Notes under the pieces: generated by a model
Database searches by the model: none
Seen by the model: the letters and a program-made list of their open reading frames with translations, nothing else
What the model was told of the DNA's origin: nothing
Position numbers and translations under genes: made by a program
Shown: piece by piece, positions 2,948-60,163 of the stretch
Numbering within the stretch: the stretch's first letter is position 1
Layout: every line of letters starts with the position of its first letter
Source of the DNA: a virus
Lineage: Duplodnaviria; Caudoviricetes
Virus record (IMG/VR): IMGVR_UViG_3300046167_000632
Location: 1-62,030 of that record
Length of the DNA stretch: 62,030 nt
Reading direction: 5' to 3' (one strand)

Positions 2948-3155
2948 GGAATTAATAAAGGTAGCTAAAGAGCCTATAGTAGATTCAGGTGACGACATAA
3001 CCGCTGACAGATTAAAAAATGCAGCAGCTACAAAAAAGCTAGCTATATTTGATGCTTTTGAAATACTAACACGTATTGAGGAAGAGAAAAGTATGATAAA
3101 CGACAACATTAAAGAAAAACCTTTTAAGGGTTTTGCGGAAGGGAGATCTAAGTGA
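2892..3155 (+). CDS. hypothetical protein, candidate terminase small subunit
   Basis: Helical 87 aa immediately upstream of and overlapping TerL; positional inference. Confidence 0.45.
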   Translation: MSTKKTKLSIIQAGQKAVEELIKVAKEPIVDSGDDITADRLKNAAATKKLAIFDAFEILTRIEEEKSMINDNIKEKPFKGFAEGRSK

Positions 3156-5380
3156 TGTACGAGCAAACATTAGTAAAAACGTTAGATGATTACATTAAGC
3201 CATCAGTTGTAAAGAAAAATAACAGACATAAGAAGTGGAGCTATGGTTACAATGAAGATCATGATATAGTTATAATAAGTAAAGACGGTACTTTAGGCGA
3301 AGTAGTACAAATACAAAACCTAGTTATAGGTTTGCCATCTGAACCTGAGAAAGTCTATAAGCGTTCAAATAAAAGAGCAGAGCAGAAGTGGGAAAAGTTA
3401 AACTACCCCAAAGAGCTATTGAAAATAAAAAGTGTGTTTGACTGGGAGAAATATCCTAACGCGTTTAAAGAAAAATGGTATGACTATATTGATGAAGAGT
3501 TTAAAAGACGTGAAGAAGGTTTTTGGTTCAAAAACAACGGTGTTGCTAATTATATTACTGGCACTCACTATATGTTCTTGCAGTGGTCCAAGATTGATGT
3601 TGGGGCAGCGGACTATAGGGAATCAAACAGATTATTCTTCATATTCTGGGAAGCTTGTAAATCAGATGTACGTTGCTACGGAATGTGCTATCTTAAGAAC
3701 AGACGGTCAGGGTTTTCTTTCATGGCGTCAAGCGAAGCGGTTAATCTCGCTACAATATCCACAGACTCAAGGTTCGGAATTTTATCAAAGTCTGGTCAGG
3801 ATGCAAAAAAGATGTTTACTGATAAAGTGGTACCCATCTCAGTTAATTATCCCTTCTTCTTCAAACCAATCCAGGACGGTATGGACAGGCCGAAGACGGA
3901 GCTCGCCTATAGAGTCCCAGCCTCCAAACTTACCCGTAAGAAACTCGACGAAGGTATTGCTTCCGAGGAGAGGCAAGGTCTTGATACCACGATCGACTGG
4001 AAGAACACCGGGGACAACTCGTACGATGGGGAAAAACTAAAGATATTAGTACATGATGAAAGTGGTAAATGGGAAAGACCTGACAATATATTAAACAACT
4101 GGAGGGTTACAAAAACATGTTTACGACTAGGTAAAAGAATTGTAGGTAAGTGTATGATGGGTTCAACATCAAATGCTTTAGATAAAGGTGGTGCTAATTT
4201 TAAAAAATTATATTATGCTTCAGACGTCAGGGAGAGAAACCGCAACGGGCAGACTAGCTCAGGACTATATTCTTTGTTCATACCTATGGAATGGAATTAC
4301 GAAGGATTCATCGACGCTTATGGAGTACCTGTATTCGATACGCCAAGTGAAAAGATTAAAGATCCAACAGGTGAGCTAATAACTACAGGAGTAATAGAGC
4401 ATTGGGAAAATGAAGTTGATGGTTTAAAAAACGATCAAGATGGTTTAAACGAATATTACAGACAATTTCCAAGAACTGAAAAGCATGCTTTTAGAGATGA
4501 AGCTAAACTATCTCTATACAACCTAACCAAGATATACGAGCAAATAGATTATAACGAAGAGGTTAAAAATAAAAGTCTAGTAACTAGAGGTAGTTTCCAC
4601 TGGAGAGGTGATGTTAAGGACACCGTGGTTGAGTTTAAGCCAAACAATAATGGTAGGTTTTATGTTTCATGGGTTCCATCAGCTAACCTACAGAATAATG
4701 TTATAGTAAAAAACGGGCTTAAATACCCTGGCAACGAACATATAGGTGCATTTGGGTGTGACAGCTACGATATATCAGGTACAGTTGATAAAAGAGGATC
4801 TAACGGAGCTTTACATGGTTTAACTAAATTTAATATGGACAATGCTCCATCTAATATGTTTTTCCTAGAATATATAGCTAGACCTCAAACAGCTGAGATA
4901 TTCTTTGAAGATGTGCTTATGGCTTTACATTTCTATGGTATGCCTATATTAGCTGAGAACAACAAACCTAGATTGTTATATTATTTAAAAAGAAGGGGTT
5001 ATAGAAACTTCTCTATCAATAGACCTGACAAGTTGTATAACAAACTTTCGGTTACTGAGAAAGAAATAGGTGGAATACCAAACTCTAGTGAAGATATAAA
5101 GCAAGCACACGCCGCGTCCATAGAGACATACATAGAAGATTATGTTGGTTTTACGGGTGAAGGTTACGGACAAATGTATTTACAAAGAACATTAGAGGAC
5201 TGGGCTAGATTCAATATTAATAATAGAACAAAGCATGATGCTACTATAAGTTCTGGTCTTGCTGCAATGGCTTGTAATAAAAACAAGTATTCACCAGCTT
5301 ATAAAACAGAAAAAAGAAAAGTTCAATTATCTTTCAACCGTTATGATAACAATGGAAATATTTCAAAAATAATAAAATAA
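3152..5380 (+). CDS. terL: terminase large subunit
   Basis: Walker-A-like KNRRSGFS, Walker-B LVHDESGK, motif III MGST, RNase-H-like FGCDSYD and C-terminal HDATIS. Confidence 0.9.
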   Translation: MMYEQTLVKTLDDYIKPSVVKKNNRHKKWSYGYNEDHDIVIISKDGTLGEVVQIQNLVIGLPSEPEKVYKRSNKRAEQKWEKLNYPKELLKIKSVFDWEKYPNAFKEKWYDYIDEEFKRREEGFWFKNNGVANYITGTHYMFLQWSKIDVGAADYRESNRLFFIFWEACKSDVRCYGMCYLKNRRSGFSFMASSEAVNLATISTDSRFGILSKSGQDAKKMFTDKVVPISVNYPFFFKPIQDGMDRPKTELAYRVPASKLTRKKLDEGIASEERQGLDTTIDWKNTGDNSYDGEKLKILVHDESGKWERPDNILNNWRVTKTCLRLGKRIVGKCMMGSTSNALDKGGANFKKLYYASDVRERNRNGQTSSGLYSLFIPMEWNYEGFIDAYGVPVFDTPSEKIKDPTGELITTGVIEHWENEVDGLKNDQDGLNEYYRQFPRTEKHAFRDEAKLSLYNLTKIYEQIDYNEEVKNKSLVTRGSFHWRGDVKDTVVEFKPNNNGRFYVSWVPSANLQNNVIVKNGLKYPGNEHIGAFGCDSYDISGTVDKRGSNGALHGLTKFNMDNAPSNMFFLEYIARPQTAEIFFEDVLMALHFYGMPILAENNKPRLLYYLKRRGYRNFSINRPDKLYNKLSVTEKEIGGIPNSSEDIKQAHAASIETYIEDYVGFTGEGYGQMYLQRTLEDWARFNINNRTKHDATISSGLAAMACNKNKYSPAYKTEKRKVQLSFNRYDNNGNISKIIK

Positions 5381-38620: not shown

Positions 38621-39370
38621 TTATAAGCTTTCTTGTTTAACAAATGTTCCATTAACCATTTTACCCTGTCTAGACTTTATAACGTTATACGCGCTGTCTA
38701 TACATTTTTCTATGCTATAGCCTCTAAGCTCTGCTAAGTTAGTTAATACAACAACCATATCGCCAATAGCATCTATTACTTCAGGTTCATCGTTCTTTAA
38801 TATAGCCTGAGCAAGCTCACCAGCCTCTTCCATAAGTTTCACAAACTGAGTTCTGGCATCACCTGATTTATATATACCCTTGTCTCTAGCCCATTGACGT
38901 ATATCATCAAACCTGTTTGATTCTGTATTTTGCTCTATAAACTTATTAGCGTATGCTTTATTATATATATAACATCTGTTTACGTTAAACATAGATGTTC
39001 TAGCGTTTTTAACTATCCAGTCAATAGTTTGATTGTCTAAGCTAAATACTCCATTATTGGTTGACCATTTTAAGCCTATATTATCCATAAGTTGTCCTTT
39101 AAGCTTATTTAAAGGCACTGGAAATGTTGATGTTTGTTCTGTTGCGTTTATATTCATTTGATTAAATAGTTTTTTATATGGTTTTATATCTACTTTGTAG
39201 CCATAAGACTTTTGAAGTTCTATTTCCTTGTCAGATATATAATCTATATCATCGCTAGTAAGTAGAACTTCGTATTCGTCTGGTCTGTAACCCTGTTGGA
39301 TAGTTACCCGACTATTAAGATCACGTGTAACACCGATCTTTTTACCAGGTATGTGGTATAAATAATACAT
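38621..39370 (-). CDS. MazG-like NTP pyrophosphohydrolase with GIY-YIG-like N-terminus
   Basis: C-terminal KLMEEAGEL...DAIGD; N-terminal YYLYHIPGKKIGVT..L..R; probable start at 39370. Confidence 0.75.
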   Translation of the reverse strand: MYYLYHIPGKKIGVTRDLNSRVTIQQGYRPDEYEVLLTSDDIDYISDKEIELQKSYGYKVDIKPYKKLFNQMNINATEQTSTFPVPLNKLKGQLMDNIGLKWSTNNGVFSLDNQTIDWIVKNARTSMFNVNRCYIYNKAYANKFIEQNTESNRFDDIRQWARDKGIYKSGDARTQFVKLMEEAGELAQAILKNDEPEVIDAIGDMVVVLTNLAELRGYSIEKCIDSAYNVIKSRQGKMVNGTFVKQESL

Positions 39371-39374
39371 AATT

Positions 39375-40016
39375 TTATAGTTTATTATTATATAGGTGCA
39401 TGTTATGAGCGTGGTGATAATACCAGCCCGTTTCAATAGACAGCCTGTCTGCAACCATTTCCTGCAATGATGCAAATTGATACTGATCATTACAGAAACC
39501 GTACCAGATGTCATTAGAACGCATATAAACTGACATACACAGTCTATTGTTTATGATCGTAAATTGCACAGCATAAGTACATGGCGTGTCATAACCGTAG
39601 TCACTTATTTCTTTAGCATCATATATAGATATAGCTGCTTGTCTAGTGCTTGGATCTCTTCTAAGTATATCAACGACATTATCTAATTGATTTCTACGCT
39701 GCCATTGGTAACCATAATTAGAATTAACCTTACGATCTTCATTTGCCATACGTTCCCATATAGGTGGTATACTACCATATAATTCTCCTAATTTGTCAAT
39801 ACTAGGATCACCAGATAAATACCAAGCCCATTCAGCTGCGGCGTATTTTTTATTCCACTTACGTTCAACATTTGTTATAACTTTATCTGAAGGATTATCT
39901 ATATAAAAACCACAGTTGAATATAGCCCTTGTATCACCAAAGTCAATACCTTTTTGCAGTATTTCATCTATAACACCTTCATATGCTTCATTAGCATTGT
40001 TAAATCTTGTTTTCAT
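39375..40016 (-). CDS. thymidylate-synthase-superfamily enzyme, T4 gp42-like dCMP hydroxymethylase type
   Basis: NSNYG, PCT, MRSNDIWYGFCND (Asp at the dUMP/dCMP specificity position), NMHLY. Confidence 0.75.
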   Translation of the reverse strand: MKTRFNNANEAYEGVIDEILQKGIDFGDTRAIFNCGFYIDNPSDKVITNVERKWNKKYAAAEWAWYLSGDPSIDKLGELYGSIPPIWERMANEDRKVNSNYGYQWQRRNQLDNVVDILRRDPSTRQAAISIYDAKEISDYGYDTPCTYAVQFTIINNRLCMSVYMRSNDIWYGFCNDQYQFASLQEMVADRLSIETGWYYHHAHNMHLYNNKL

Positions 40017-44654: not shown

Positions 44655-45275
44655 TCATAATTGTTGGTTTAATAATTCTTTTTCTTTCTTCAATGTATTG
44701 TTCATGTTTCTGTATATAGTTCTAGTTGAGCAATCAAGCAAACCAGCTAGACCGCTTATAGTTATTTTCTTGCCAAACTCGTTAATATCTAACATACATT
44801 GGTAAATTGCTTCACTATCTACATTACTAGTTTTACCTATTAACTTACCGACTATACTTAGTTTCTCACTGACAGTCAGCATGTTATGATCTTTAAATAT
44901 AACTTTACGTAATTTATTTCTAGGTGGTTCATCAAGATCACTCATTAATACATCATATACTATTTTTTCATAGTGCCAAGAGCTAATATCAAAGGTAACA
45001 AATCCATTTTTTTTATCACATATAACTTTAGCCATGTTATCAAACTGATCTTGATTCATAGTGGTATTTAAATACCATAAAACATACAAATGCCATTTAA
45101 GACTTTTGTAAGAGGTTATCTTAGCGTTGGTGTTAAATAATGTGTAGCATTCATAAGTACCATTTTCAAAGAACATATACTTTTCAGTTTCTATAGTAGG
45201 TATATCGCTTATAGGGTCTTGTCTATATACGATGCCTCTGTTTACTAAATATTTTATGTTTCTTGTATATGACAT
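44655..45275 (-). CDS. DNA-binding protein with C-terminal helix-turn-helix
   Basis: 'ITISGLAGLLDCSTRTIYRNM' HTH; palindrome overlaps its start codon. Confidence 0.65.
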   Translation of the reverse strand: MSYTRNIKYLVNRGIVYRQDPISDIPTIETEKYMFFENGTYECYTLFNTNAKITSYKSLKWHLYVLWYLNTTMNQDQFDNMAKVICDKKNGFVTFDISSWHYEKIVYDVLMSDLDEPPRNKLRKVIFKDHNMLTVSEKLSIVGKLIGKTSNVDSEAIYQCMLDINEFGKKITISGLAGLLDCSTRTIYRNMNNTLKKEKELLNQQL

Positions 45276-45311
45276 TAGCCCCTTACTATATAATCTTATG
45301 GGCTGTTGTCA
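45270..45311. promoter_or_regulatory. spaced palindrome copy A (operator/origin-like)
   Basis: TGACATTAGCC-N20-GGCTGTTGTCA. Confidence 0.7.
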
Positions 45312-45370
45312 CAGTACCCTTTTTCTTAGTTTTATTTTTTTTAAGATTTTCAATCTTATCCTTCATGCCT

Positions 45371-49098: not shown

Positions 49099-49151
49099 TT
49101 TTATTTATTTAATTACATTTATATTATCCAACTTTATTTTAATTTTGTTTG

Positions 49152-51301: not shown

Positions 51302-51428
51302 ATCTATAATTGATTTATTAGTTCTTGTACTTCATTAAACAGCATTTCATCTATCTGTTTTCTTGAATAGTGGTCTTTATACGCTTCGTATACTAAATCC
51401 CACGGGTTTTTAACTGGTTCGTCGTTCA

Positions 51429-51641
51429 TTATAAGAATTTTTTAACTTGTTCTTTGATTAATAATATATCTTTATCTGTTATGCGCATAGCTTGATCATA
51501 GTCTACGGTGTTCTGTATTATATCACTAAAGCTTTCCCACATCTTAAGATCCATTTGCATAGCAATAGAATCTATACTTTCCTCTGACAAACTTTGTTGA
51601 TCTTCTTGGATCTCATGCCATTTTTTTACTGAATCGCTCAT
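51429..51641 (-). CDS. hypothetical protein
   Basis: 70-aa ORF, coupled start/stop. Confidence 0.55.
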   Translation of the reverse strand: MSDSVKKWHEIQEDQQSLSEESIDSIAMQMDLKMWESFSDIIQNTVDYDQAMRITDKDILLIKEQVKKFL

Positions 51642-51844
51642 TAGTCTTGGTATTTTTTAAGTGTCATACTGTTTACTTTATCTATGATCTCGTTACCTAC
51701 TAAAGTAAAATAACCAGGTGCATATATAGATCTTTTACCATCAGCTTCAGCTGCTAATACATCTTTTTCTGCTTCTTCGATAGCGTGTTTTAACGCTGTT
51801 TGGATGAAATACTTTTCAAATCCATTAAATTTAGTTTTACTCAT
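51641..51844 (-). CDS. hypothetical protein
   Basis: 67-aa ORF, coupled start/stop. Confidence 0.6.
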   Translation of the reverse strand: MSKTKFNGFEKYFIQTALKHAIEEAEKDVLAAEADGKRSIYAPGYFTLVGNEIIDKVNSMTLKKYQD

Positions 51845-52110
51845 TATAGTGTCTTTTTTATTATTAGTAATTGCTTTGTGTCAAACTTCTTGTGAGTTTC
51901 TTGCCACATACGGTTGTGGGTGAACTTTCTAGCTTTTGCGAAGTTAGATTTCTGACGAGTTGTAATACTATTGTATTCTTTGTCAGTTAGTCCACCACAT
52001 ACACCGTTTGCTCGAACAGCACGTCTATGCCCGTCTGCTCGTGATTTTTTCTGTAGTTCCGAGTAAGCTAGTAGCTCTTTCATAGTTCTCGGGTTAGATA
52101 CTACGTCCAT
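51844..52110 (-). CDS. hypothetical basic protein
   Basis: 88-aa ORF. Confidence 0.55.
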   Translation of the reverse strand: MDVVSNPRTMKELLAYSELQKKSRADGHRRAVRANGVCGGLTDKEYNSITTRQKSNFAKARKFTHNRMWQETHKKFDTKQLLIIKKTL

Positions 52111-52295
52111 ATACTCTCAGGTTTTTGAATATAAGTTAAACCTTTGTAGTTGAACCATTGAGTTATACCTTCTCTGTCTTCATCCTCGTTATAGATGAAA
52201 GCAAACTTTCTAGGTAGATTACCTACAGTATAGCCTTTGAAGACAACACCGTTGAGTTTTATTGTACTTGAATTTTTAAATTTAATTTTCTGCAT
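52101..52295 (-). CDS. hypothetical early protein
   Basis: First gene after repeat copy 52313-52354. Confidence 0.6.
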   Translation of the reverse strand: MQKIKFKNSSTIKLNGVVFKGYTVGNLPRKFAFIYNEDEDREGITQWFNYKGLTYIQKPESIWT

Positions 52296-52827
52296 AGTTT
52301 ATTATTTATTATTTACATTTATATTATCCAATAGAAATATTATTTTGTTTGTAATTTTCTACTTGTATATCTCATTTATTAGATCTTGTACTAACATGTC
52401 TTCAGTCTCTTCCTCTGCAGGAATACAGTCCGTTTCTACAAATAGCTCGATCTTACGAACAGTTTGTTTTTTGCTTAAATAGCTACTTATAAATTTAAAG
52501 TAACTTATAGTTTCTTCTGACCAATAGAATAGACTCATACTACTTGAATTTAGCAGCGACTTCTTGTATTTCTACTTTGTCTTGATGATCTAATCCACTA
52601 GTTTGACTTGCGTACATTCTTAGTACATAGTGTACAAAGGTACAATCGCTTTCTGTAAGTTGTATATTTCTCATAATTAGTTTTTTATCGCCCAAGCAGC
52701 AGCGCTACCTAGTTTAGTTAATACTTTGTTTGCTTTTTTTAGTACTAATAGTACTTTGTGTGAAAATTTTATCATTGTTATTAGTTTATTATATTATCCA
52801 ATAGTTATTATTATTTGTTTGTAATTC

Positions 52828-53100
52828 TTAATCGCCTGTATACTCACCTGAGTATGTATTAGAATACCAATCTCTTCGCGCTTCGTGCACTAGATCTTGT
52901 ATTTGTAATAGATCTTGTCTTTGATCGATCAAGTGATCTATTTCATCTCGCATATCTTGCTCGCTTAGTTTAGTAAACATACTTGTTTCTAAGCCATCTA
53001 GTAAGTTTCTGTCATTGCAGTGATAGTTATCGTACTTGATACCATTCCAAGTCTCGCTTAGTATATAAGTATACTCTATATTTCTGTAAGTTTTAGTCAT
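52828..53100 (-). CDS. hypothetical early protein
   Basis: 90-aa ORF; stop abuts next repeat copy. Confidence 0.6.
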   Translation of the reverse strand: MTKTYRNIEYTYILSETWNGIKYDNYHCNDRNLLDGLETSMFTKLSEQDMRDEIDHLIDQRQDLLQIQDLVHEARRDWYSNTYSGEYTGD

Positions 53101-53240
53101 TATTAGTAGATTTATAAAAGTTAATTCTTGTAAGTATCTCGCATCGAGAGATCTTACCTTCCACTTGTAATAGTATATCGCTTGACATATCTATTTTTTT
53201 ACCATTAGGTAGATTTAGTATAAATTGCATAGTTTATAGT

Positions 53241-53360
53241 TTAGTAGAAGTCATAGTATATATCTATTACTTGAGATCTTTGATCACTAGTTAGTTCGTT
53301 AAAGTCTTTCTTGAATATTCTTCTTGATATTTTTAGTAAGGTATATGATTTTGTACACAT
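53241..53360 (-). CDS. 39-aa early peptide (not in ORF track)
   Basis: MCTKSYTLLKISRRIFKKDFNELTSDQRSQVIDIYYDFY*; similar to 55186-55356. Confidence 0.55.
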   Translation of the reverse strand: MCTKSYTLLKISRRIFKKDFNELTSDQRSQVIDIYYDFY

Positions 53361-53382
53361 AGTTTTATTATTTATTAGTTAG

Positions 53383-53458
53383 TAGTCGTTGGTGGAATCG
53401 AACCACCTCACAAAGTAGAGCTCACGTAGTCAAAATGCAGAGTGAAACCGTTACGACT
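53383..53458 (-). ncRNA. tRNA-like RNA 3 (non-canonical)
   Basis: AGTCGT/ACGACT acceptor-like stem; GGTGG-TTCGATT-CCACC T-arm; GGTT after the 5' strand as in RNAs 1 and 2. Confidence 0.6.
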
Positions 53459-53475
53459 TGTTTGATCTGAGAGTA

Positions 53476-53703
53476 CTATTTTTCTAGTACTTCTCGAGCG
53501 ATCACTGGTACACTAGTTGAAGAAGTGTAAGACTTGTACTTAATGAAGCACGCCATATTTTCCAGTTTAGACTTCATTACTTCATACACTTTATCGTGAT
53601 TGTAGGTAACTGTTTTACCATTTTTGAAGTTGACAGTGATTAACTGATTTTTACCGATTAGAGATTTTCTGATTACAAATCTTTTTGAAATTAAAGTTGA
53701 CAT
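53476..53703 (-). CDS. early protein, paralog of 54857-55087
   Basis: About 51/75 identical residues by hand count; has its own promoter repeat. Confidence 0.8.
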   Translation of the reverse strand: MSTLISKRFVIRKSLIGKNQLITVNFKNGKTVTYNHDKVYEVMKSKLENMACFIKYKSYTSSTSVPVIAREVLEK

Positions 53704-53790
53704 AGTTAAAATTATTTAGTTATTATTATTATTATTATTAGTTTGTTACATTTATATTATCCAAATGGAATATTATTTTGTTTGTAAAAT

Positions 53791-53958
53791 TTATATAGTT
53801 TTAAAAGTTATAAAGTTTTTAGTTAATAGTTTTGGAATATCAATATTAGAAGGATTATTAATAATTTTAAGTTTATTATTTAAAGTTATAATATTAATAT
53901 AATTATTAGTTAATAAGTTAGTAGTTTGTTTAATTTGGTATTTATTTATTAAAAACAT
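53791..53958 (-). CDS. 55-aa ORF with G-less coding strand (not in ORF track)
   Basis: MFLINKYQIKQTTNLL...FITFKTI*; fills the space between two repeat copies; 2 G in 168 nt. Confidence 0.55.
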   Translation of the reverse strand: MFLINKYQIKQTTNLLTNNYINIITLNNKLKIINNPSNIDIPKLLTKNFITFKTI

Positions 53959-54198
53959 AGTTATTATTTTTTAAAGTTTATTATTATTATTTATTTTCAT
54001 TAATATTATCCAATACTTAATTTATTTTGTTTGTAAAAGGTGTATAATTATTTATTAGTAAAAATAGTTACAGAAGTATAATACTCTTTCTCTTCTTGTA
54101 CAATACAGAAAGTTTCTCGTAGGACGGAGTCTACTCTTCCGATCTTGTTTCAGAATCAGGCCTGCAATGGAACACTAAACTTAGTTTCTCAAAAAGTG

Positions 54199-54241
54199 TG
54201 ACATTTGCCTATTAGATTAAGATAGTAACAGGCTATTGTCA
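54199..54241. promoter_or_regulatory. spaced palindrome copy B
   Basis: TGACATTTGCC-N21-GGCTATTGTCA. Confidence 0.7.
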
Positions 54242-54245
54242 CAGT

Positions 54246-54395
54246 TTACAGATGCTCATCAACTAGCATGTTGAGATCATCCCACAGTTTTCCAGTTTGT
54301 TTAGTATCATACACATCATAGATTGTATATACTTTATTGTCCACTGTCAATTCATAAAGATCATTGTCTTGATCAATTTTAAATGATACTACCAT
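54246..54395 (-). CDS. 49-aa acidic early peptide (not in ORF track)
   Basis: MVVSFKIDQDNDLYEL...LVDEHL*. Confidence 0.5.
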   Translation of the reverse strand: MVVSFKIDQDNDLYELTVDNKVYTIYDVYDTKQTGKLWDDLNMLVDEHL

Positions 54396-54559
54396 TGTTT
54401 TCTAGGATTAAATTTGATTTGTACAACATATTCATTTTTCTCTTGATCATCATCTCTGTGATCACAATATTCTGAGAAGTCTATTATTTTTGATTGATCC
54501 AGTGTATCATAAAATTTGTTGAGGTTTGAGATCCCTGTGATCATTTTTTCTATTATCAT
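54389..54559 (-). CDS. 56-aa early peptide (not in ORF track)
   Basis: MIIEKMITGISNL...NPRKQW*, preceded by AAT-rich leader. Confidence 0.5.
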   Translation of the reverse strand: MIIEKMITGISNLNKFYDTLDQSKIIDFSEYCDHRDDDQEKNEYVVQIKFNPRKQW

Positions 54560-54560
54560 A

Positions 54561-54620
54561 ATTATTAGTTTTATTATTATTAGTTTATTATTATTAGTTT
54601 ATTATTATTAGTTTATTATA
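54561..54620. repeat. 14-bp tandem repeat, ~4 copies
   Basis: (ATTATTATTAGTTT)n forming the leader of the 54559 ORF. Confidence 0.75.
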
Positions 54621-54778
54621 TTATTTAGTTGTGCTAAATTTTGTTTTAGGTTTTGAATATTATTAATTGAAATTAGGTGATTTTTTAGATAATTGTTTTT
54701 TAAGTGTTCTGGTGTAATTGTAGTTGAAGGGTGAAATAGATTTTTGTGAGTTAAGATTTGGTTGATTAATTTTTGCAT
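54608..54778 (-). CDS. 56-aa ORF with G-poor coding strand (not in ORF track)
   Basis: MQKLINQILTHKNLFHP...AQLNNIIN*; follows repeat copy 54808-54849; 3 G in 171 nt. Confidence 0.55.
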   Translation of the reverse strand: MQKLINQILTHKNLFHPSTTITPEHLKNNYLKNHLISINNIQNLKQNLAQLNNIIN

Positions 54779-54856
54779 AGTTGTTAATTATTTAAGTTAT
54801 TATTTATTTACATTTATATTATCCAAGTTGGATTTCGTTTTGTTTGTAGTAAGATC

Positions 54857-55087
54857 TTAATCAGTTATGATTAATGATCTTGTAACTACAGGCATTGAAG
54901 TTGATGAAGTGTATGATTTATACTTAGCCCAACAGTTCATTGTTTCAAGTTTTGGTTTCATAACATTGTATACATCGTCGTGATTGTACTTTGAAACTTT
55001 TCCGTTTTTGAATGTTACTTCAATGATTTGATTTTTTCCGATTAATGATTTGCGAACAACAAATCTTTTTGATTTTAAGATTGACAT
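54857..55087 (-). CDS. early protein, paralog of 53476-53703
   Basis: Shared SKRFV.RKSLIGKNQ and KYKSYTSSTS blocks. Confidence 0.8.
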   Translation of the reverse strand: MSILKSKRFVVRKSLIGKNQIIEVTFKNGKVSKYNHDDVYNVMKPKLETMNCWAKYKSYTSSTSMPVVTRSLIITD

Positions 55088-55185
55088 AATTTATTTATTT
55101 TATTTAGTTATTATTAATTATTTATTTCATATATATTATCCATTATATATATTATTTTGTTTGTAAGTAGTTTACGATAATTCGA

Positions 55186-55356
55186 TCAAGATTTCCTGGA
55201 TAGATCGAAATCGTTACGAGCTGCCCAAGCCTTGAGCTCAGGGATTGGACCGAAGAAGATCTCTTCGACTGATCCGCGTTGATCATGATCAAGCTCCGCG
55301 TAAAGCTTTTGGTGAAGACTCATTGAGATCTTATCAATTGTGGTAAGGTATGACAT
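55186..55356 (-). CDS. 56-aa first gene of the early arm (not in ORF track)
   Basis: MSYLTTIDKISMSLHQKLYAELDHDQRGSVEEIFFG...SRKS*; between two repeat copies. Confidence 0.6.
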   Translation of the reverse strand: MSYLTTIDKISMSLHQKLYAELDHDQRGSVEEIFFGPIPELKAWAARNDFDLSRKS

Positions 55357-55483
55357 ATTTTGTGATTTAGATGTAGAGCTTAATTGCTTACATATATATT
55401 ATCCATGATCATATGTGTTATGTTTGTGAAATCAGCTCTACGAAAATGATCGATGATCACAGTATGGATCGATCCTACGAGGC

Positions 55484-55517
55484 AAAACGTAAAACGTAAA
55501 ACGAAAAACGTAAAAAA
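55484..55517. repeat. 7-bp tandem repeat AAAACG(T/A) x4
   Basis: aaaacgt aaaacgt aaaacga aaaacgt in the divergence region. Confidence 0.75.
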
Positions 55518-55616
55518 TGTGGGGCCGTGGGCTAAATGAAAATGATTTTGTGATCAGGGGCCGTTGGTGAAAAAAGAGGTGTAACACTTTTACCCCTATA
55601 TATCTAACGAAAACTA

Positions 55617-55658
55617 TGACATTAGCCTTATAGAGTATATAGTAAGGGGCTATTGTCA
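55617..55658. promoter_or_regulatory. spaced palindrome copy C
   Basis: TGACATTAGCC-N20-GGCTATTGTCA; spacer is the reverse complement of copy A's spacer over CCTTACTATATA. Confidence 0.7.
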
Positions 55659-55715
55659 CATTATTGTAAAAAATAGCTGTTTTATGTGAGTATATATACT
55701 ATAATAAATAGAATT

Positions 55716-56033
55716 ATGGCTAAACCAAAGAAAAAGGGAGGACCTATACAAAAGTTATCACCTACTGGGCGTGCTAGAAAGGCTGCTAGAGACGTGTGTT
55801 ATGCTAAAGGATGGGTATGGAACAAAGATAATGGTACATGCTCTAAATCTGGAGAGGGAACATCGACAAATGCTTTGCAGAGAAAAGAGAAAAAGGCAGA
55901 AAATCAAAGAATAGGGCAGAATAGTAGCACAGATATACACCATATTGGTGGTAAATTAGGTAAAACTAAAAGAGTACCAACTGGTAGCAACAGAGGAGAT
56001 AGCGGAGATGGCACAAAGAACGACAGAGAATAA
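55716..56033 (+). CDS. basic protein with HNH-like C-terminus
   Basis: 'TDIHHIGG...RVPTGSNRG'; probable ATG at 55716. Confidence 0.5.
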   Translation: MAKPKKKGGPIQKLSPTGRARKAARDVCYAKGWVWNKDNGTCSKSGEGTSTNALQRKEKKAENQRIGQNSSTDIHHIGGKLGKTKRVPTGSNRGDSGDGTKNDRE

Positions 56034-56048
56034 TCAAAAAAATAAAAC

Positions 56049-58158
56049 ATGGCAATAATATATTCATATCCAGTAGCATCAGCTGTTGAAGCTGGTGATC
56101 TAGTGATAGGTACTGATACAACTGGTAAGCAAACAAAAAACTTCACGCTGCAGTCGATAGTTGACTTGGTACCTGATAATGTAAACGGTACAGTAGGTAC
56201 TATACCAGTATTTACAGGAACTAAAGCTATAGGTGATTCTTGGATTATTCAGACCCTTAACCCAAGTGTAAGCTCTGGAAAACTGGTATATGTTGAGGGC
56301 AGCCTTGGTGTAGACGCATCGGCAACTGTTGCTGAATTTTTTGAGGTTGGTGGAAGTGCTAATATACTTGGTAGTCTAACTGTTGGCGTGAACCCATATC
56401 CAAACATGCCAAACTCTCATCTAAAAGCACCTGCATTAACCGCGGTAAAAGCAACATATGGCTCTACAGATGTAAGAGAAGGTATAGTTTATATAGGTGG
56501 TTGGATTGATGATGCTTCTGGTGGTTCCACTTATTCTGACTATACATTAAATTTGTATACAAAAAATCAGTTTGATGATCCAGTCACTTTTACCGACGCT
56601 AAGGCTTTTGAATATAAGTTTAACGATGGCTACGTATTCGCTAGAATTCAGGCAGAAGACTATGCTGGCGGTAATATAAATCCTTTATGGGAAATAGGTG
56701 ATGTAGAATCAGAGAATACCACATATGCGTGGAGAGTTAATTTTGGTAACTACGCTGAGTTCTCTAGTAAATACCTCGGTGTTACGGCTTTTAAGGTAAC
56801 ACCTTCAAGTGTTGAAGTAAATACACCACTAGCTTTAACAGATGATATCGATATGAACGCGTCTGGTAAAATAATAGATCTATTAGACCCTACAGATCCG
56901 CAAGATGCAGCAACAAAAAGTTATGTTGATGCTGGTAACACTGGTCAAGTAACAGGAACAGGCACAAACGGATCTTTACCACTATGGTCAGATGGGCCAA
57001 ACGGGGTGTTAGGTAACTCTGCTATTAAACAACATATGGGTAACAATATTACTATAGGGTCACCTAACGTTGGTTCACAAGGTAACTATACTTTATCTGT
57101 GGGTAACGGCAATGACTTTGCTAGTGGCGCAGCAAGAGTTTTAGCTGTAGGTAACGAAAATGGCTTTGCTAGTGGCACAGCAAGAGTTTTAGCTGTAGGA
57201 CTTGGTAACGTTGTGATGGACCCGACAGGTGTTGTGGACTCAGCTATTATAGGTTTATCTAATCAAGTTCAAGGTAGTTATTCATTAACTGTTGGGCAAA
57301 ACAATCAAACGAATAGCGGAACTAGCTTTGTGGCTGGTATTGATAATATTACTTCTTCAGGCGTTCCAAGACAATTTGTAATTGGTAGAGAAAACGCTGT
57401 AGATTCTATTGACACTATTGTTTTAGGTGACAGAAATATAGTTACAGAAACAGGTGATGGTTTTGGGTCTATGATGGTGTTTGGGCACTTAAACGATGTA
57501 AAAGGTGATCGTATACTTTGTTTAGGTACGTCTAATATTGTAAACAGCGACAATCAAGGAGCTTATATTATTGGTGCTGGTAGTAGTTCTACTGCTGATA
57601 GAACATATTCAGTTGGTCAACAAAATGCAATTACTGGCAATGAGTCCTATGCTTTTGGAAAGTCTAATACAATCGCAGCTTCTGCATCTGTGGCCGTTGG
57701 TACTAACAATAGTATATCTGCTGTTGAAAAAGCATATGCATTTGGTTTTGGAAATGATAATATTAATTTTAAATCATTTGCAATAGGGGATAATAACGAT
57801 GTTTTAAGTGCACAAAGAACTTATTTAATTGGTAGAGAAAATAAACCCGCTACGGACAATACATTATTCTAGGGCAATACTCTGACCCTAGTGTTCTTAG
57901 GACGAGTAACATAAACTGGTAGGATCAACCGTAGCTTTCGGGGTTGGGGTAAACAATGGAATAAGACGAACAGCTTGGGAGTTCAGGGGCAAACCAACAT
58001 CCACAGGCGATACAAGTGCGGGTGACTCTATGCAGATTATGGCGTGGGCTTTGCTCTATAGCACTTCTTATGCGGATGACACGGCGGCAGCGGCAGGTGG
58101 AGTTGAAGTAGGACAATTATATAGAACTGGAAGTACAGTTAAAATAAGAATGACATAA
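56049..58158 (+). CDS. tail fibre / receptor-binding protein with YadA-like beta-roll repeats (C-terminus frameshifted)
   Basis: DPTDPQDAATKSYVD stalk motif; repeated 'xxxG..N' units; end YADDTAAAAGGVEVGQLYRTGSTVKIRMT* in another frame. Confidence 0.75.
57102..57199 (+). repeat. 48-bp in-frame tandem duplication in tail fibre
   Basis: GNGNDFASGAARVLAV / GNENGFASGTARVLAV, near-identical DNA. Confidence 0.85.
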
Positions 58159-58609: not shown

Positions 58610-60163
58610 ATGGATGCAATAGTTAAAAATCTAAACTTCGGAGAGAAGGCTAGAAAAAACGTCTATGAGGGTATAGACAAGTTAACAAAAGCTGTAAGCT
58701 CTACATTAGGTGCTAGCGGTAAATGCGTTATGCTAGAAGATCACACTGGTAAACCAATAATAACAAAAGACGGTGTTACAGTGGCAGAGTCAGTTATATT
58801 AAGAGATCCAGTTGAAAACATGGGAGCTACGCTTTTAAAAGAAGCGGCTCGTAAAACTGTTAAAGAGGCTGGCGATGGTACAACTACAGCTACAGTACTT
58901 GCTCATGCAATACTTACTGAGGCTTACGAAGTCTTAGATAAAACAAATAGTAGAGATTTAAAAGAAGGTATTGACAAGTCTGTTGAAGCTGTTGTAGATT
59001 ACTTAAAAGAGAACTCTGTAGAAGTAACTGATGACATGCTAGATCAAGTAGCTACTATATCAACCAACAACGATCCTGAATTAGGTAAGATAATTGGTGA
59101 TGCTTTTAGGTTAGTTGACTTAACAGGTGTTGTCGTAATGGAACCTACAGAAGATAATGAAACTTCGGTTGAATTAGTCGAAGGTGTAGAGTATGACAAA
59201 GGACTTGTAAACTCACATTTTGTAACAAGCAAAACAAAAAGAGCTGCAGAACTTGAAAACGCTTTAGTGTTAATAGTAGAATCACCAGTTGAGTCTATAA
59301 GAAAAATACAAAGTGTTTTAGAATATGTTATAAAGAATAACAAGGCTTTATTAGTCATAGCTGATTGTGAACAAAGCGTTATATCGGCACTGGCAATGAA
59401 TAAGGTTAAGGGTAATATAAAAGTAAACGTCATAAACGCACCTACATATGGTGTAAGCAAAAAAGATACATTAAATGACTTAGCACTATTAACTGGCGCT
59501 ACAGTTATAAATGAAGATCTTGGAGATGATATGGACCTTATACAACCAGAATATCTAGGAAGTTGCTTAAAAAGCATTACAACAGACCTAGAGACTATAA
59601 TACAAGTAGAGGATAATAATCCAGATGTAGAAAAACTAGTCAAAGACTTAAGACATCAAATAGAAACAACTAAAAATCCTAACGAGATAATAAGACTAGA
59701 AAGAAGACTTGGTAGAATATCGGCTAAGGTTGCTATTGTCAAGGTTGGGGCAAATTCTGAAATAGAATTAAAAGAAAAACAGGATAGGGTTGAAGACGCT
59801 ATCTGTGCTACTAAAGCCGCAATAAAAGAAGGTATTGTTTCTGGTGGTGGCATTGCACTCCTAAATGCATCAAACAAAATAAAAGCAAAAACAGTAGGGG
59901 AGAAAGTTTTATTGAAGGCAATAAAGGCTCCATTTAAAACAATACTAAGTAATGCCGGTATAGATAAATACGACAAGCCTGATGCTGATGGTAAAGGATT
60001 AAACGTGGTTACAGGAAATATGGTAAATATGATAGACTCAGGAATTATCGATCCTTTACTAGTAACTAAAAGCGCTTTAAGAAACGCGGCTTCTGTAGCA
60101 TCAACAATACTATCTACTGATTGTGTAATTAATAACTTGAGGATTGATGATAGCAATAGGTAG
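58610..60163 (+). CDS. groEL: chaperonin GroEL
   Basis: [44 protein letters not shown]. Confidence 0.97.

Follow-up and report, generated by a model that had tools for sequence, protein, structure and literature searches.

Why should the tetranucleotide GATC be crowded into the presumed early region of a bacteriophage in which no methylase is recognisable? The question is posed by the IMG/VR virus IMGVR_UViG_3300046167_000632, whose whole record of 62,030 bp (referred to below as the window) was analysed here; the record is estimated to be 96% complete, and the ~4% of the genome that may be absent from it bears on each result below in which a gene is not found in the phage. A sequence-only reading of this DNA had drawn attention to three GATC clusters and counted their sites by hand, and those counts proved exact: cluster 1 (55184-55555) contains 13 sites, cluster 2 (54275-54542) eight and cluster 3 (52893-52938) five within 46 bp, among 34 in the interval 52890-55555, and the six AGCT noted alongside lie at 55219, 55235, 55292, 55304, 55377 and 55434. 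The clusters stand near the sole large divergent intergenic region of the genome (the divergence point). Structural genes run rightward, from ~55.7 kb across the record ends to 33 kb, and the interval from ~50 kb down to 34 kb is occupied by leftward genes of replication and nucleotide metabolism, which include those for ribonucleotide reductase, a primase-helicase, ERF, a ligase, a thymidylate-synthase-fold protein and a sigma-like protein. We confirm that the clusters are not a product of chance and that they exceed what chance, composition or protein sequence give. Our preferred reading, which we hold tentatively, is that selection has assembled them as an array of sites with a GATC core, for binding or methylation, which acts on early transcription.

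Base composition predicts 195.7 GATC in 62,030 bp, or one per 317 bp, in line with the earlier estimate of one per 300-400 bp, and 246 are observed. The local excess survives the Markov and codon corrections that had been put forward as its check. Dinucleotide-preserving shuffles of the three segments, taken in the order above, gave means of 3.01, 2.07 and 0.94 GATC and maxima of 9, 7 and 4, and the observed count was reached in none of 2000 shuffles for any of them; against these local shuffles GATC ranks second, second and first among the 256 four-mers (z 5.7, 4.1 and 4.3). In 300 genomes simulated from a third-order Markov model, which preserves the genome-wide GATC frequency, the largest count per 372 bp was 6.4 ± 0.8 and never more than 9, so that 13 was reached in none; a count of eight was reached in 31, and cluster 2 by itself is therefore marginal on a genome-wide scale. 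The 4.1 kb adjoining the divergence point on its early side take in the four densest GATC clusters of the genome (13, 8, 7 and 6 per 400 bp), and the interval 51400-55560, which is 6.7% of the genome, holds 43 of the 246 sites (binomial p 8e-9). The premise that phages avoid such palindromes fails here, since GATC has the highest observed/expected ratio (O/E 1.30) of all 16 palindromic 4-mers genome-wide. The palindromes that are avoided in this genome are CATG (O/E 0.64) and GGCC (0.66). The window and the related genomes G001, G002, G004 and G005 all show depletion of CATG (O/E 0.45-0.64) and, for the most part, of GGCC (0.45-0.84), which is likely the trace of host restriction systems with those sites.

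Within genes, the excess depends on codon choice as well as on the encoded protein. Cluster 1 includes the first early open reading frame (ORF), at 55186-55356 on the minus strand, which encodes 56 amino acids of no known family and holds six GATC, made at six of the eight dipeptides able to encode the motif. The acidic 56-residue ORF at 54389-54559 (minus strand) in cluster 2 holds five, at five of seven possible sites including ATG-ATC and GGG-ATC, and the five sites of cluster 3 fall inside the ORF at 52828-53100 (minus strand), which encodes ...IDHLIDQRQDLLQIQDLV.... Synonymous resampling, in which codons were drawn by the genome's own usage, predicts 1.87, 2.28 and 2.09 GATC for these three ORFs where 6, 5 and 5 are observed (p <2e-4, 0.005 and 0.008), and the suggestion that synonymous choice might favour GATC is thereby borne out. 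The preference can be traced to individual codons in the 17 small early ORFs. There, Asp preceding a codon that starts with C is written GAT 19 times and GAC never, compared with 33/18 elsewhere, and Ile following a codon that ends in G is written ATC ten times, ATA five times and ATT never, compared with 17/38/23 elsewhere, even though ATC is a rare Ile codon (75/925 in large genes). A weaker bias in the same direction is found in 34 large genes, which hold 157 GATC where 120 ± 7.8 are expected and use Asp GAT/GAC at 105/21 ahead of a C-starting codon as opposed to 532/261. Thus the Asp-rich protein sequence accounts for part of the excess and codon choice for the rest. This codon choice, together with the turnover of sites described below, leads us to conclude that GATC crowding is apparently maintained at the DNA level, by selection on the DNA itself.

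The sites occur in coding and non-coding DNA alike, as the sequence-only reading had remarked, and the non-coding ones are gathered around promoter-like sequences. Nine copies of a strongly conserved ~40-bp promoter-like repeat of the form TTACAAACAAAATAA-N(8-10)-TTGGATAATATAAATGTAA lie on the minus strand between 49080 and 55440, with ATATTATC cores starting at 49121, 50289, 52321, 52791, 53754, 54003, 54816, 55133 and 55396, and downstream of every copy come one to three small ORFs to which no family could be assigned; the core GATAATA is found in 49 of 52 relatives. The spacing of the repeat does not seem to fit a standard sigma-70 promoter or the Bacteroidetes consensus. The first early promoter, a divergent copy of the repeat (TTCACAAACA...TGGATAATATATATGTAA; 55385-55432, minus strand), carries a GATC in its spacer, at 55407 (ATGATCAT), and directly upstream of it, at a distance of no more than 80 bp, there is a non-coding quartet at 55448, 55455, 55467 and 55471 (55440-55480), made up of TGATCGATGATCA and the 10-bp palindrome GGATCGATCC. 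Six of the 13 sites of cluster 1 are non-coding in this way, lying upstream of the ORF and forming an oriented repeat, and the promoters at 54816 and 55133 have further GATC 4-25 bp upstream. The contexts of the sites are also distinctive: cluster 1 includes five TGATCA and two AGATCT, together with 5 of the genome's 75 TCGA, cluster 2 includes four TGATCA, and nine of the genome's 21 TGATCA fall in 54370-55556 (p 8e-11). TGATCA makes up 11/43 of GATC contexts in the early region as against 10/203 elsewhere, and the palindromic hexamers TGATCA and AGATCT together make up 20/43 as against 39/203. Among 25 distinct non-coding sites from the window and from metagenomic contigs that share its first early cassette, all read in a single orientation, T at -1, A at +4 and T at +5 are each present in 17, giving the extended form TGATCAT(TT).

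As for relatives, from which the clusters might have been absent altogether, the outcome is divided: they recur in eight contigs that share a cassette with the window, and 30 of 56 anchored relatives are free of GATC in the homologous 780 bp. The eight contigs, which emerged from a metagenome scan, carry homologues of ORF 55186-55356 with 88-100% amino acid identity and have 8-14 GATC each, of which 5-7 are within the ORF; their 260-bp upstream stretches contain 6, 6, 5, 7, 6, 0, 6 and 6. The ORF behaves as coding sequence, the third codon position being the most variable (13 sites compared with 8 and 5). In five of the contigs (L133, L134, L136, L139 and L140) the upstream stretch is largely unalignable with that of the window (similarity 0.57-0.61); the contigs include two such unalignable upstream versions, each with 5-7 sites of the form TGATCAT. 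The GATC in the promoter spacer is kept in eight of nine aligned sequences, namely the window and seven of the eight contigs, L138 being without it. IMG/VR itself offers little to compare with the two densest segments, for among 123 loci nothing aligns to 54300-54700 or 55200-55500 and the core at 55168-55505 is without a counterpart; ORF 54389-54559 has no relative in that database and ORF 55186-55356 at most one doubtful match of 28 residues, and blastn with 52000-56500 found nothing similar at the DNA level in 50,697 phage records. In the closest IMG/VR relative (94% nucleotide identity in the flanks) the alignment jumps from 54247 to 54857, so that the 609-bp stretch 54248-54856 containing cluster 2 is lacking, and 130 bp replace the 338 bp of 55168-55505; the 56-residue ORF is missing there, but three ATGATCA motifs are still present in the same place. 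The sites of cluster 3 are kept in L090, L089 and L091 (94-98% nucleotide identity), and the homologue of its ORF in L094, which is 44% identical, has four GATC, three at new positions and one shared. The fourth-ranked cluster, in a 70-residue ORF at 51429-51641 (minus strand), has four GATC and its close relatives two, none and none. A more distant locus, L014, has an unrelated and G+C-richer first early ORF, ~160-520 bp to the early side of the anchor, with seven GATC and two more in the upstream non-coding DNA. Across the nearest clade (L010, L089-L096) the early 3.5 kb contain 129 GATC where 72.5 are expected, and the late 6 kb contain 128 where 130 are expected. When 198 promoter-bounded cassettes were pooled, strongly enriched cassettes were more numerous for GATC (13) than for any other four-mer, and its pooled O/E was 1.52 (rank 13/256), although homologous cassettes are counted repeatedly in this pool. 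An overall gain of GATC relative to close relatives was considered and rejected, the window-only and relative-only sites numbering 14/8, 8/7, 11/7 and 9/14; only a partition of events by hand, made for 48-55.6 kb against L010 and L090, gave 11 against 2. In sum, GATC density recurs while positions turn over, in one lineage only.

The sequence-only reading had also supposed that the sites are tolerated because cytosine is modified, and of this the first part is plausible. The thymidylate-synthase-fold gene at 39375-40016 (minus strand; PF00303 at 4e-28, with Cys146 invariant in the alignment) is dCMP-hydroxymethylase-like: at the Asn column of thymidylate synthase it carries Asp (RSNDIWYGFCND), where a T4-type dCMP hydroxymethylase has RSNDVVFGFRND and the td protein of RB68 has RSVDVFLGLPFN with Asn. 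In thymidylate synthase this Asn selects uracil, and Asp in its place marks the cytosine-specific hydroxymethylases. The best PDB matches of the product are the CMP 5-hydroxymethylase entries 5b6d and 5jnh, its best phage match is a Bacteroides phage protein annotated as deoxycytidylate 5-hydroxymethyltransferase (43.8% identity), and the ORF that comes next (38621-39514, minus strand) has a MazG pyrophosphatase domain at its C terminus. These features make it plausible that the phage DNA contains 5-hydroxymethyl-cytosine. The second part of the supposition is not supported, since GATC is avoided nowhere in the genome and nothing needs tolerating; hydroxymethyl-cytosine would leave the enrichment unexplained. 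The clusters do, as had been claimed, alternate with C-free tracts. Here lie the genome's five longest stretches without C (53842-53955, 53763-53840, 54558-54633, 54635-54708 and 54710-54775), within two C-poor tracts of the plus strand, 53763-53955 and 54558-54775, which lie opposite the minus-strand ORFs 53791-53958 and 54608-54778 respectively and have no GATC. A plus strand free of C results in G-free mRNAs and a reduced amino-acid alphabet for these two ORFs, and in a template strand without cytosine. Taken with the hydroxymethylase-like gene, the tracts might suggest that these early templates are free of modified cytosine.

How might such an array work? We propose that a reader of duplex DNA would recognise GATC-core sites, which often take the form TGATCA or GATCAT and are concentrated in the promoter-proximal ~4 kb of a leftward early transcription unit. 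The array would start as oriented TGATCAT repeats upstream of the first early promoter and within its spacer, and would extend into the first small early genes by way of synonymous codons that make GATC. Site density would count, not exact position, and occupancy or methylation of the array may act in cis on the early promoters, altering their timing, strength or shut-off. Two kinds of candidate reader come to mind: a Dam-family methylase of the host acting with a factor sensitive to methylation, or a small Gbn-like DNA-binding protein encoded by phage or host. In the phage, no methyltransferase had been visible to the sequence-only reading and six-frame searches bear this out: D12, phage-Dam, N6/N4 and C5 methylases (PF02086, PF05869, PF01555 and PF00145) are absent, the first three without a match at E<=1. 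For the host, we sampled 151 genomes from the family of a metagenome-assembled genome (MAG) titled Flavobacteriaceae, which is likely to be the family of the host. D12 (Dam-family) methylases are present in 42 of the 151, which makes a Dam-type host methylase possible but patchy in occurrence, and this patchiness could fit a GATC pattern that is specific to one lineage. A screen of gene content for a shared reader (present in the window and in G159, absent from G001 and G002) produced no plausible DNA-binding candidate. The ten small ORFs that were scanned gave nothing above Pfam and PHROGs cut-offs, and no Gbn homologue was found, no search aimed at one having been made.

A number of observations weigh against our reading. 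No reader was found in the phage, which in addition to the methylases above has no MutH/Sau3AI, DpnII or SeqA domain; SeqA (PF03925) is likewise found in none of the 151 sampled genomes, so that a SeqA mechanism is not supported. We call the promoters and small ORFs early from their place in the genome layout, and expression of the ORFs is presumed. When local trinucleotide counts are taken into account, the second-order expectation N(GAT)N(ATC)/N(AT) rises to 7.7, 4.6 and 3.6 for the three segments and the excess is only 1.4-1.8-fold, albeit with trinucleotide counts that are themselves inflated by the GATCs. Coding sites have mixed flanks, and GATCWT is only mildly enriched in the early region (26/43 compared with 79/203; p 0.011). 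Four complete relatives have scattered maxima of only 5-7 GATC per 400 bp, a point that stands beside the GATC-free relatives mentioned above, and family-wide iterons of the ATGAT type were rejected because most of 52 relatives have none or one per 260 bp. Within the 56-residue ORF the GATC positions are not better conserved than others (variable at 4/24 compared with 22/132), and its Asp-rich kind of protein by itself predicts about two GATC per 56 residues, several times the average of large genes.

These last two points also favour what is perhaps the most serious alternative, possible though in our estimation unlikely, which is that the clusters are a functionless by-product of recently acquired foreign cassettes encoding acidic, Asp-rich proteins, with GAT-C junctions and an unadapted donor composition yielding the motif. 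Consistent with this, the two densest segments are those for which no counterpart was found in the 123 IMG/VR loci and which the closest relative skips, the segment 55168-55505 is atypical in both CpG (O/E 1.44 compared with 0.67 ± 0.27 for the genome, in the top 1% of windows) and G+C (0.39-0.45), and 13 of the 19 coding sites in four cluster ORFs are phase-0 GAT-Cxx. What such an origin does not predict is that the observed counts should exceed synonymous resampling of the same proteins, that the rare codon ATC should appear in 10 of 15 cases exactly where it completes a GATC, or that six sites of cluster 1 should lie outside the ORF as an oriented repeat. Moreover, both ORFs of cluster 2 (the second being the 49-residue ORF at 54246-54395 on the minus strand, with ten Asp, three GATC and a homologue in L092 at 92% amino acid identity) have no CpG at all yet are GATC-rich, and this opposite CpG content of the two clusters argues against a single donor signature. 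Finally, upstream versions that are not homologous each retain 5-7 sites.

The remaining alternatives assign the clusters a function other than transcription. That the divergence point holds a cis-acting element of DNA metabolism, either a replication origin or a packaging site of the P1 pac kind, strikes us as improbable. The appeal of this idea lies in the location, the only large divergent intergenic region, and in the five TGATCA and one TGATCG that are found within 55280-55556 and adjoin AAAACGT repeats and a G/C-rich direct repeat kept in relatives; set against this are the many anchored relatives that are GATC-free there, the 130 bp that the closest relative has instead of 338, the lack of a Dam gene in the six-frame search, a large terminase gene ~9.7 kb away on the circular map and the position of clusters 2-4, which sit 1.3-4 kb deeper in the early genes. 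Nothing that we found points to the origin role that had been suggested, and contig ends of five relatives tell nothing about physical termini, all six records being described as linear and placing the anchor at scattered positions. It had also been suggested that the sites act as a sponge for restriction enzymes, that is, as decoys for GATC-specific enzymes on the first-exposed DNA that are made harmless through cytosine modification. The dCMP-hydroxymethylase-like gene beside the MazG-domain gene would suit such a decoy, as would the fact that 55168-55505 is the genome's densest patch of short palindromes with G or C (30 G/C-containing 4-bp palindromes per 340 bp compared with 9.6 ± 3.4, and 14 compared with 3.2 ± 1.9 for 6-bp palindromes, both genome maxima; 12 GATC, 6 AGCT, 5 TCGA, 4 TGATCA, 2 AGATCT and 2 ATCGAT). 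We nevertheless consider it very improbable: the other 203 GATC of the genome are equally exposed, the avoidance of CATG and GGCC would be needless if modification gave general protection, and few genomes of the sampled host family encode GATC-cutting enzymes (DpnII type in 2 of 151 genomes, two-domain MutH-family proteins of the Sau3AI type in 5 of 151), so that a sponge would have little to absorb. To our knowledge, which we did not extend by a search, there is no precedent for a restriction-site sponge, and this too counts against the idea. We give still less credence to a signal at the RNA level, in which GAUC in early mRNAs would be cut by a sequence-specific endoribonuclease, so ending early expression, while G-free mRNAs escape. 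The T4 endoribonuclease RegB acts at GGAG, and the alternation of GATC-rich with G-free early cassettes, as well as a codon bias that falls within transcribed ORFs, would be in keeping with a nuclease of this sort. Five sites (55448-55552) are, however, upstream of the first promoter and beyond the reach of leftward early mRNAs, and the enriched hexamers are palindromic, which points to duplex DNA.

Our preferred reading of an array acting on early transcription invites comparison with systems in which GATC is known to be read. In gammaproteobacteria, GATC clusters read by Dam and SeqA are found at oriC and the dnaA promoter, and Dam-sensitive promoters include those of IS10, Mu mom and pap. 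The clusters described here resemble these in that GATC is crowded around and inside a promoter and in that density rather than exact position could matter; they differ in that there is no phage Dam and no SeqA in the phage or the 151 genomes, in that the host phylum is Bacteroidota, and in extending over kilobases of coding DNA. The pac site of P1 consists of TGATCA/G hexamer blocks at which Dam methylation of adenine controls cleavage. Here, too, several TGATCA or TGATCG hexamers lie within ~300 bp and are partly intragenic (TGATCA at 55280, 55286, 55406, 55454 and 55551, TGATCG at 55447), although a two-block symmetry is not clear, there is no phage Dam, the sites are distant from the terminase gene and are not kept in relatives that share the terminase, and there is no evidence of cleavage. 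A methylation-independent protein that binds GATCWT is known in Streptomyces: Gbn (SCO1839) is described as a small, Actinobacteria-specific nucleoid-associated protein, which recognises GATC with (A/T)T after it and in most cases reduces expression (PMC9239103). The non-coding sites counted above, mostly GATCAT, resemble this form, and unlike the Gbn sites of that account, which are spread genome-wide, they are clustered. Subcluster B3 mycobacteriophages over-use GATC and GGATCC about fourfold, an excess that is left unexplained in the study concerned (PMC4841201). In these phages, too, GATC is over-represented and not avoided, though no host Dam is known, but the B3 excess is genome-wide and explicitly not regional; in the window the excess over the whole genome is 1.3-fold and what stands out is local. 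The defining features of the Dam/SeqA, P1 pac and Gbn systems either fail here or are left open, so we assign the clusters to none of them. Our search of the literature, which covered result listings, passages of PMC10644984 and PMC4841201 and the abstract of PMC9239103, turned up no Bacteroidota phage described as having regional GATC clusters in its early genes, and, at the level of listings, nothing on promoters or methylation of elemo or Cellulophaga podoviruses.

Several other features of the genome deserve mention. The phage is podovirus-like, its large terminase TerL (3152-5380) being ~44% identical to those of podoviruses of Flavobacterium (the vB_FspP_elemo group), Cellulophaga, Tenacibaculum and Maribacter and 63% identical to one uncultured record. 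Upstream of the early genes there is a conserved block at the divergence point (55481-55700), which from 55506 onwards aligns with close relatives at 85-87% and comprises AAAACGT-type repeats, two copies of GGGGCCGT(G/T)GG, the GATC at 55552 and an inverted repeat, TGACATTAGCC...GGCTATTGTCA. Within it, 55481-55580 has four of the AAAACGT-type repeats and then the two GGGGCCGT(G/T)GG copies, and many relatives have similar A-rich ACGT repeats beside a G/C-rich block at their divergence points. The inverted repeat, with 20 nt between its arms, is found three times (55610-55660, 54192-54243 and 45267-45315; minus strand) and is kept in relatives. For the product of ORF 55186-55356, we guessed at a ribbon-helix-helix autorepressor from the sequence pattern, and this idea is unsupported: the AlphaFold monomer is all-helical with a mean pLDDT of 69, too weak for a fold search, and the ESM Atlas gave no usable match. 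Ten small early ORFs that were scanned against Pfam and PHROGs gave sub-threshold noise only. ARAGORN predicted no tRNA, and Rfam gave nothing at its gathering threshold across the whole window nor at E<=1 in 52000-56200; between early cassettes, at 53385-53460 (minus strand), there is a sequence like the 3' part of a tRNA (GGTGGTTCGATTCCACC), at which neither tool makes a call. Paralogous early proteins of 75 and 76 residues (53476-53703 and 54857-55087, both minus strand) have relatives in 43 viral contigs, many of which stop within ~250 bp past the gene; the probable cause is that the repeated promoters and paralogues interrupt assembly. On the rightward side, a GroEL-like chaperonin gene (58610-60163, plus strand) has relatives in at least 592 viral stretches, and contigs resembling this region have been binned into MAGs of very different phyla, which looks like mis-binning.

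A more specific form of our preferred reading can be imagined, in which a density code of GATC and TGATCA, written between genes and, by synonymous codons, inside them, and read by occupancy or adenine methylation, possibly together with hydroxymethyl-cytosine in the same palindromes, would serve as a host-sensing timer for the nine early promoters; with this timer a Bacteroidota phage would switch its early genes epigenetically with neither a methylase of its own nor SeqA, a proposal that we consider rather improbable. Enterobacteria and their phages classically use GATC clusters for regulation, and there the clusters need Dam, SeqA or a phage methylase. Here, comparable crowding is found in an uncultured marine Flavobacteriia phage without a recognisable Dam, SeqA or phage methylase. 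Should the by-product explanation be true, the locus would show cleanly that a motif signal can be mimicked by mosaic cassettes and acidic accessory genes, which would matter for scans of phage genomes that rely on restriction-site statistics. If a reader exists, on the other hand, the clusters would represent a new way to time or protect early phage transcription, in a phylum in which phage regulation is almost unstudied, and a 100-bp fragment would provide a concrete handle for finding that reader.

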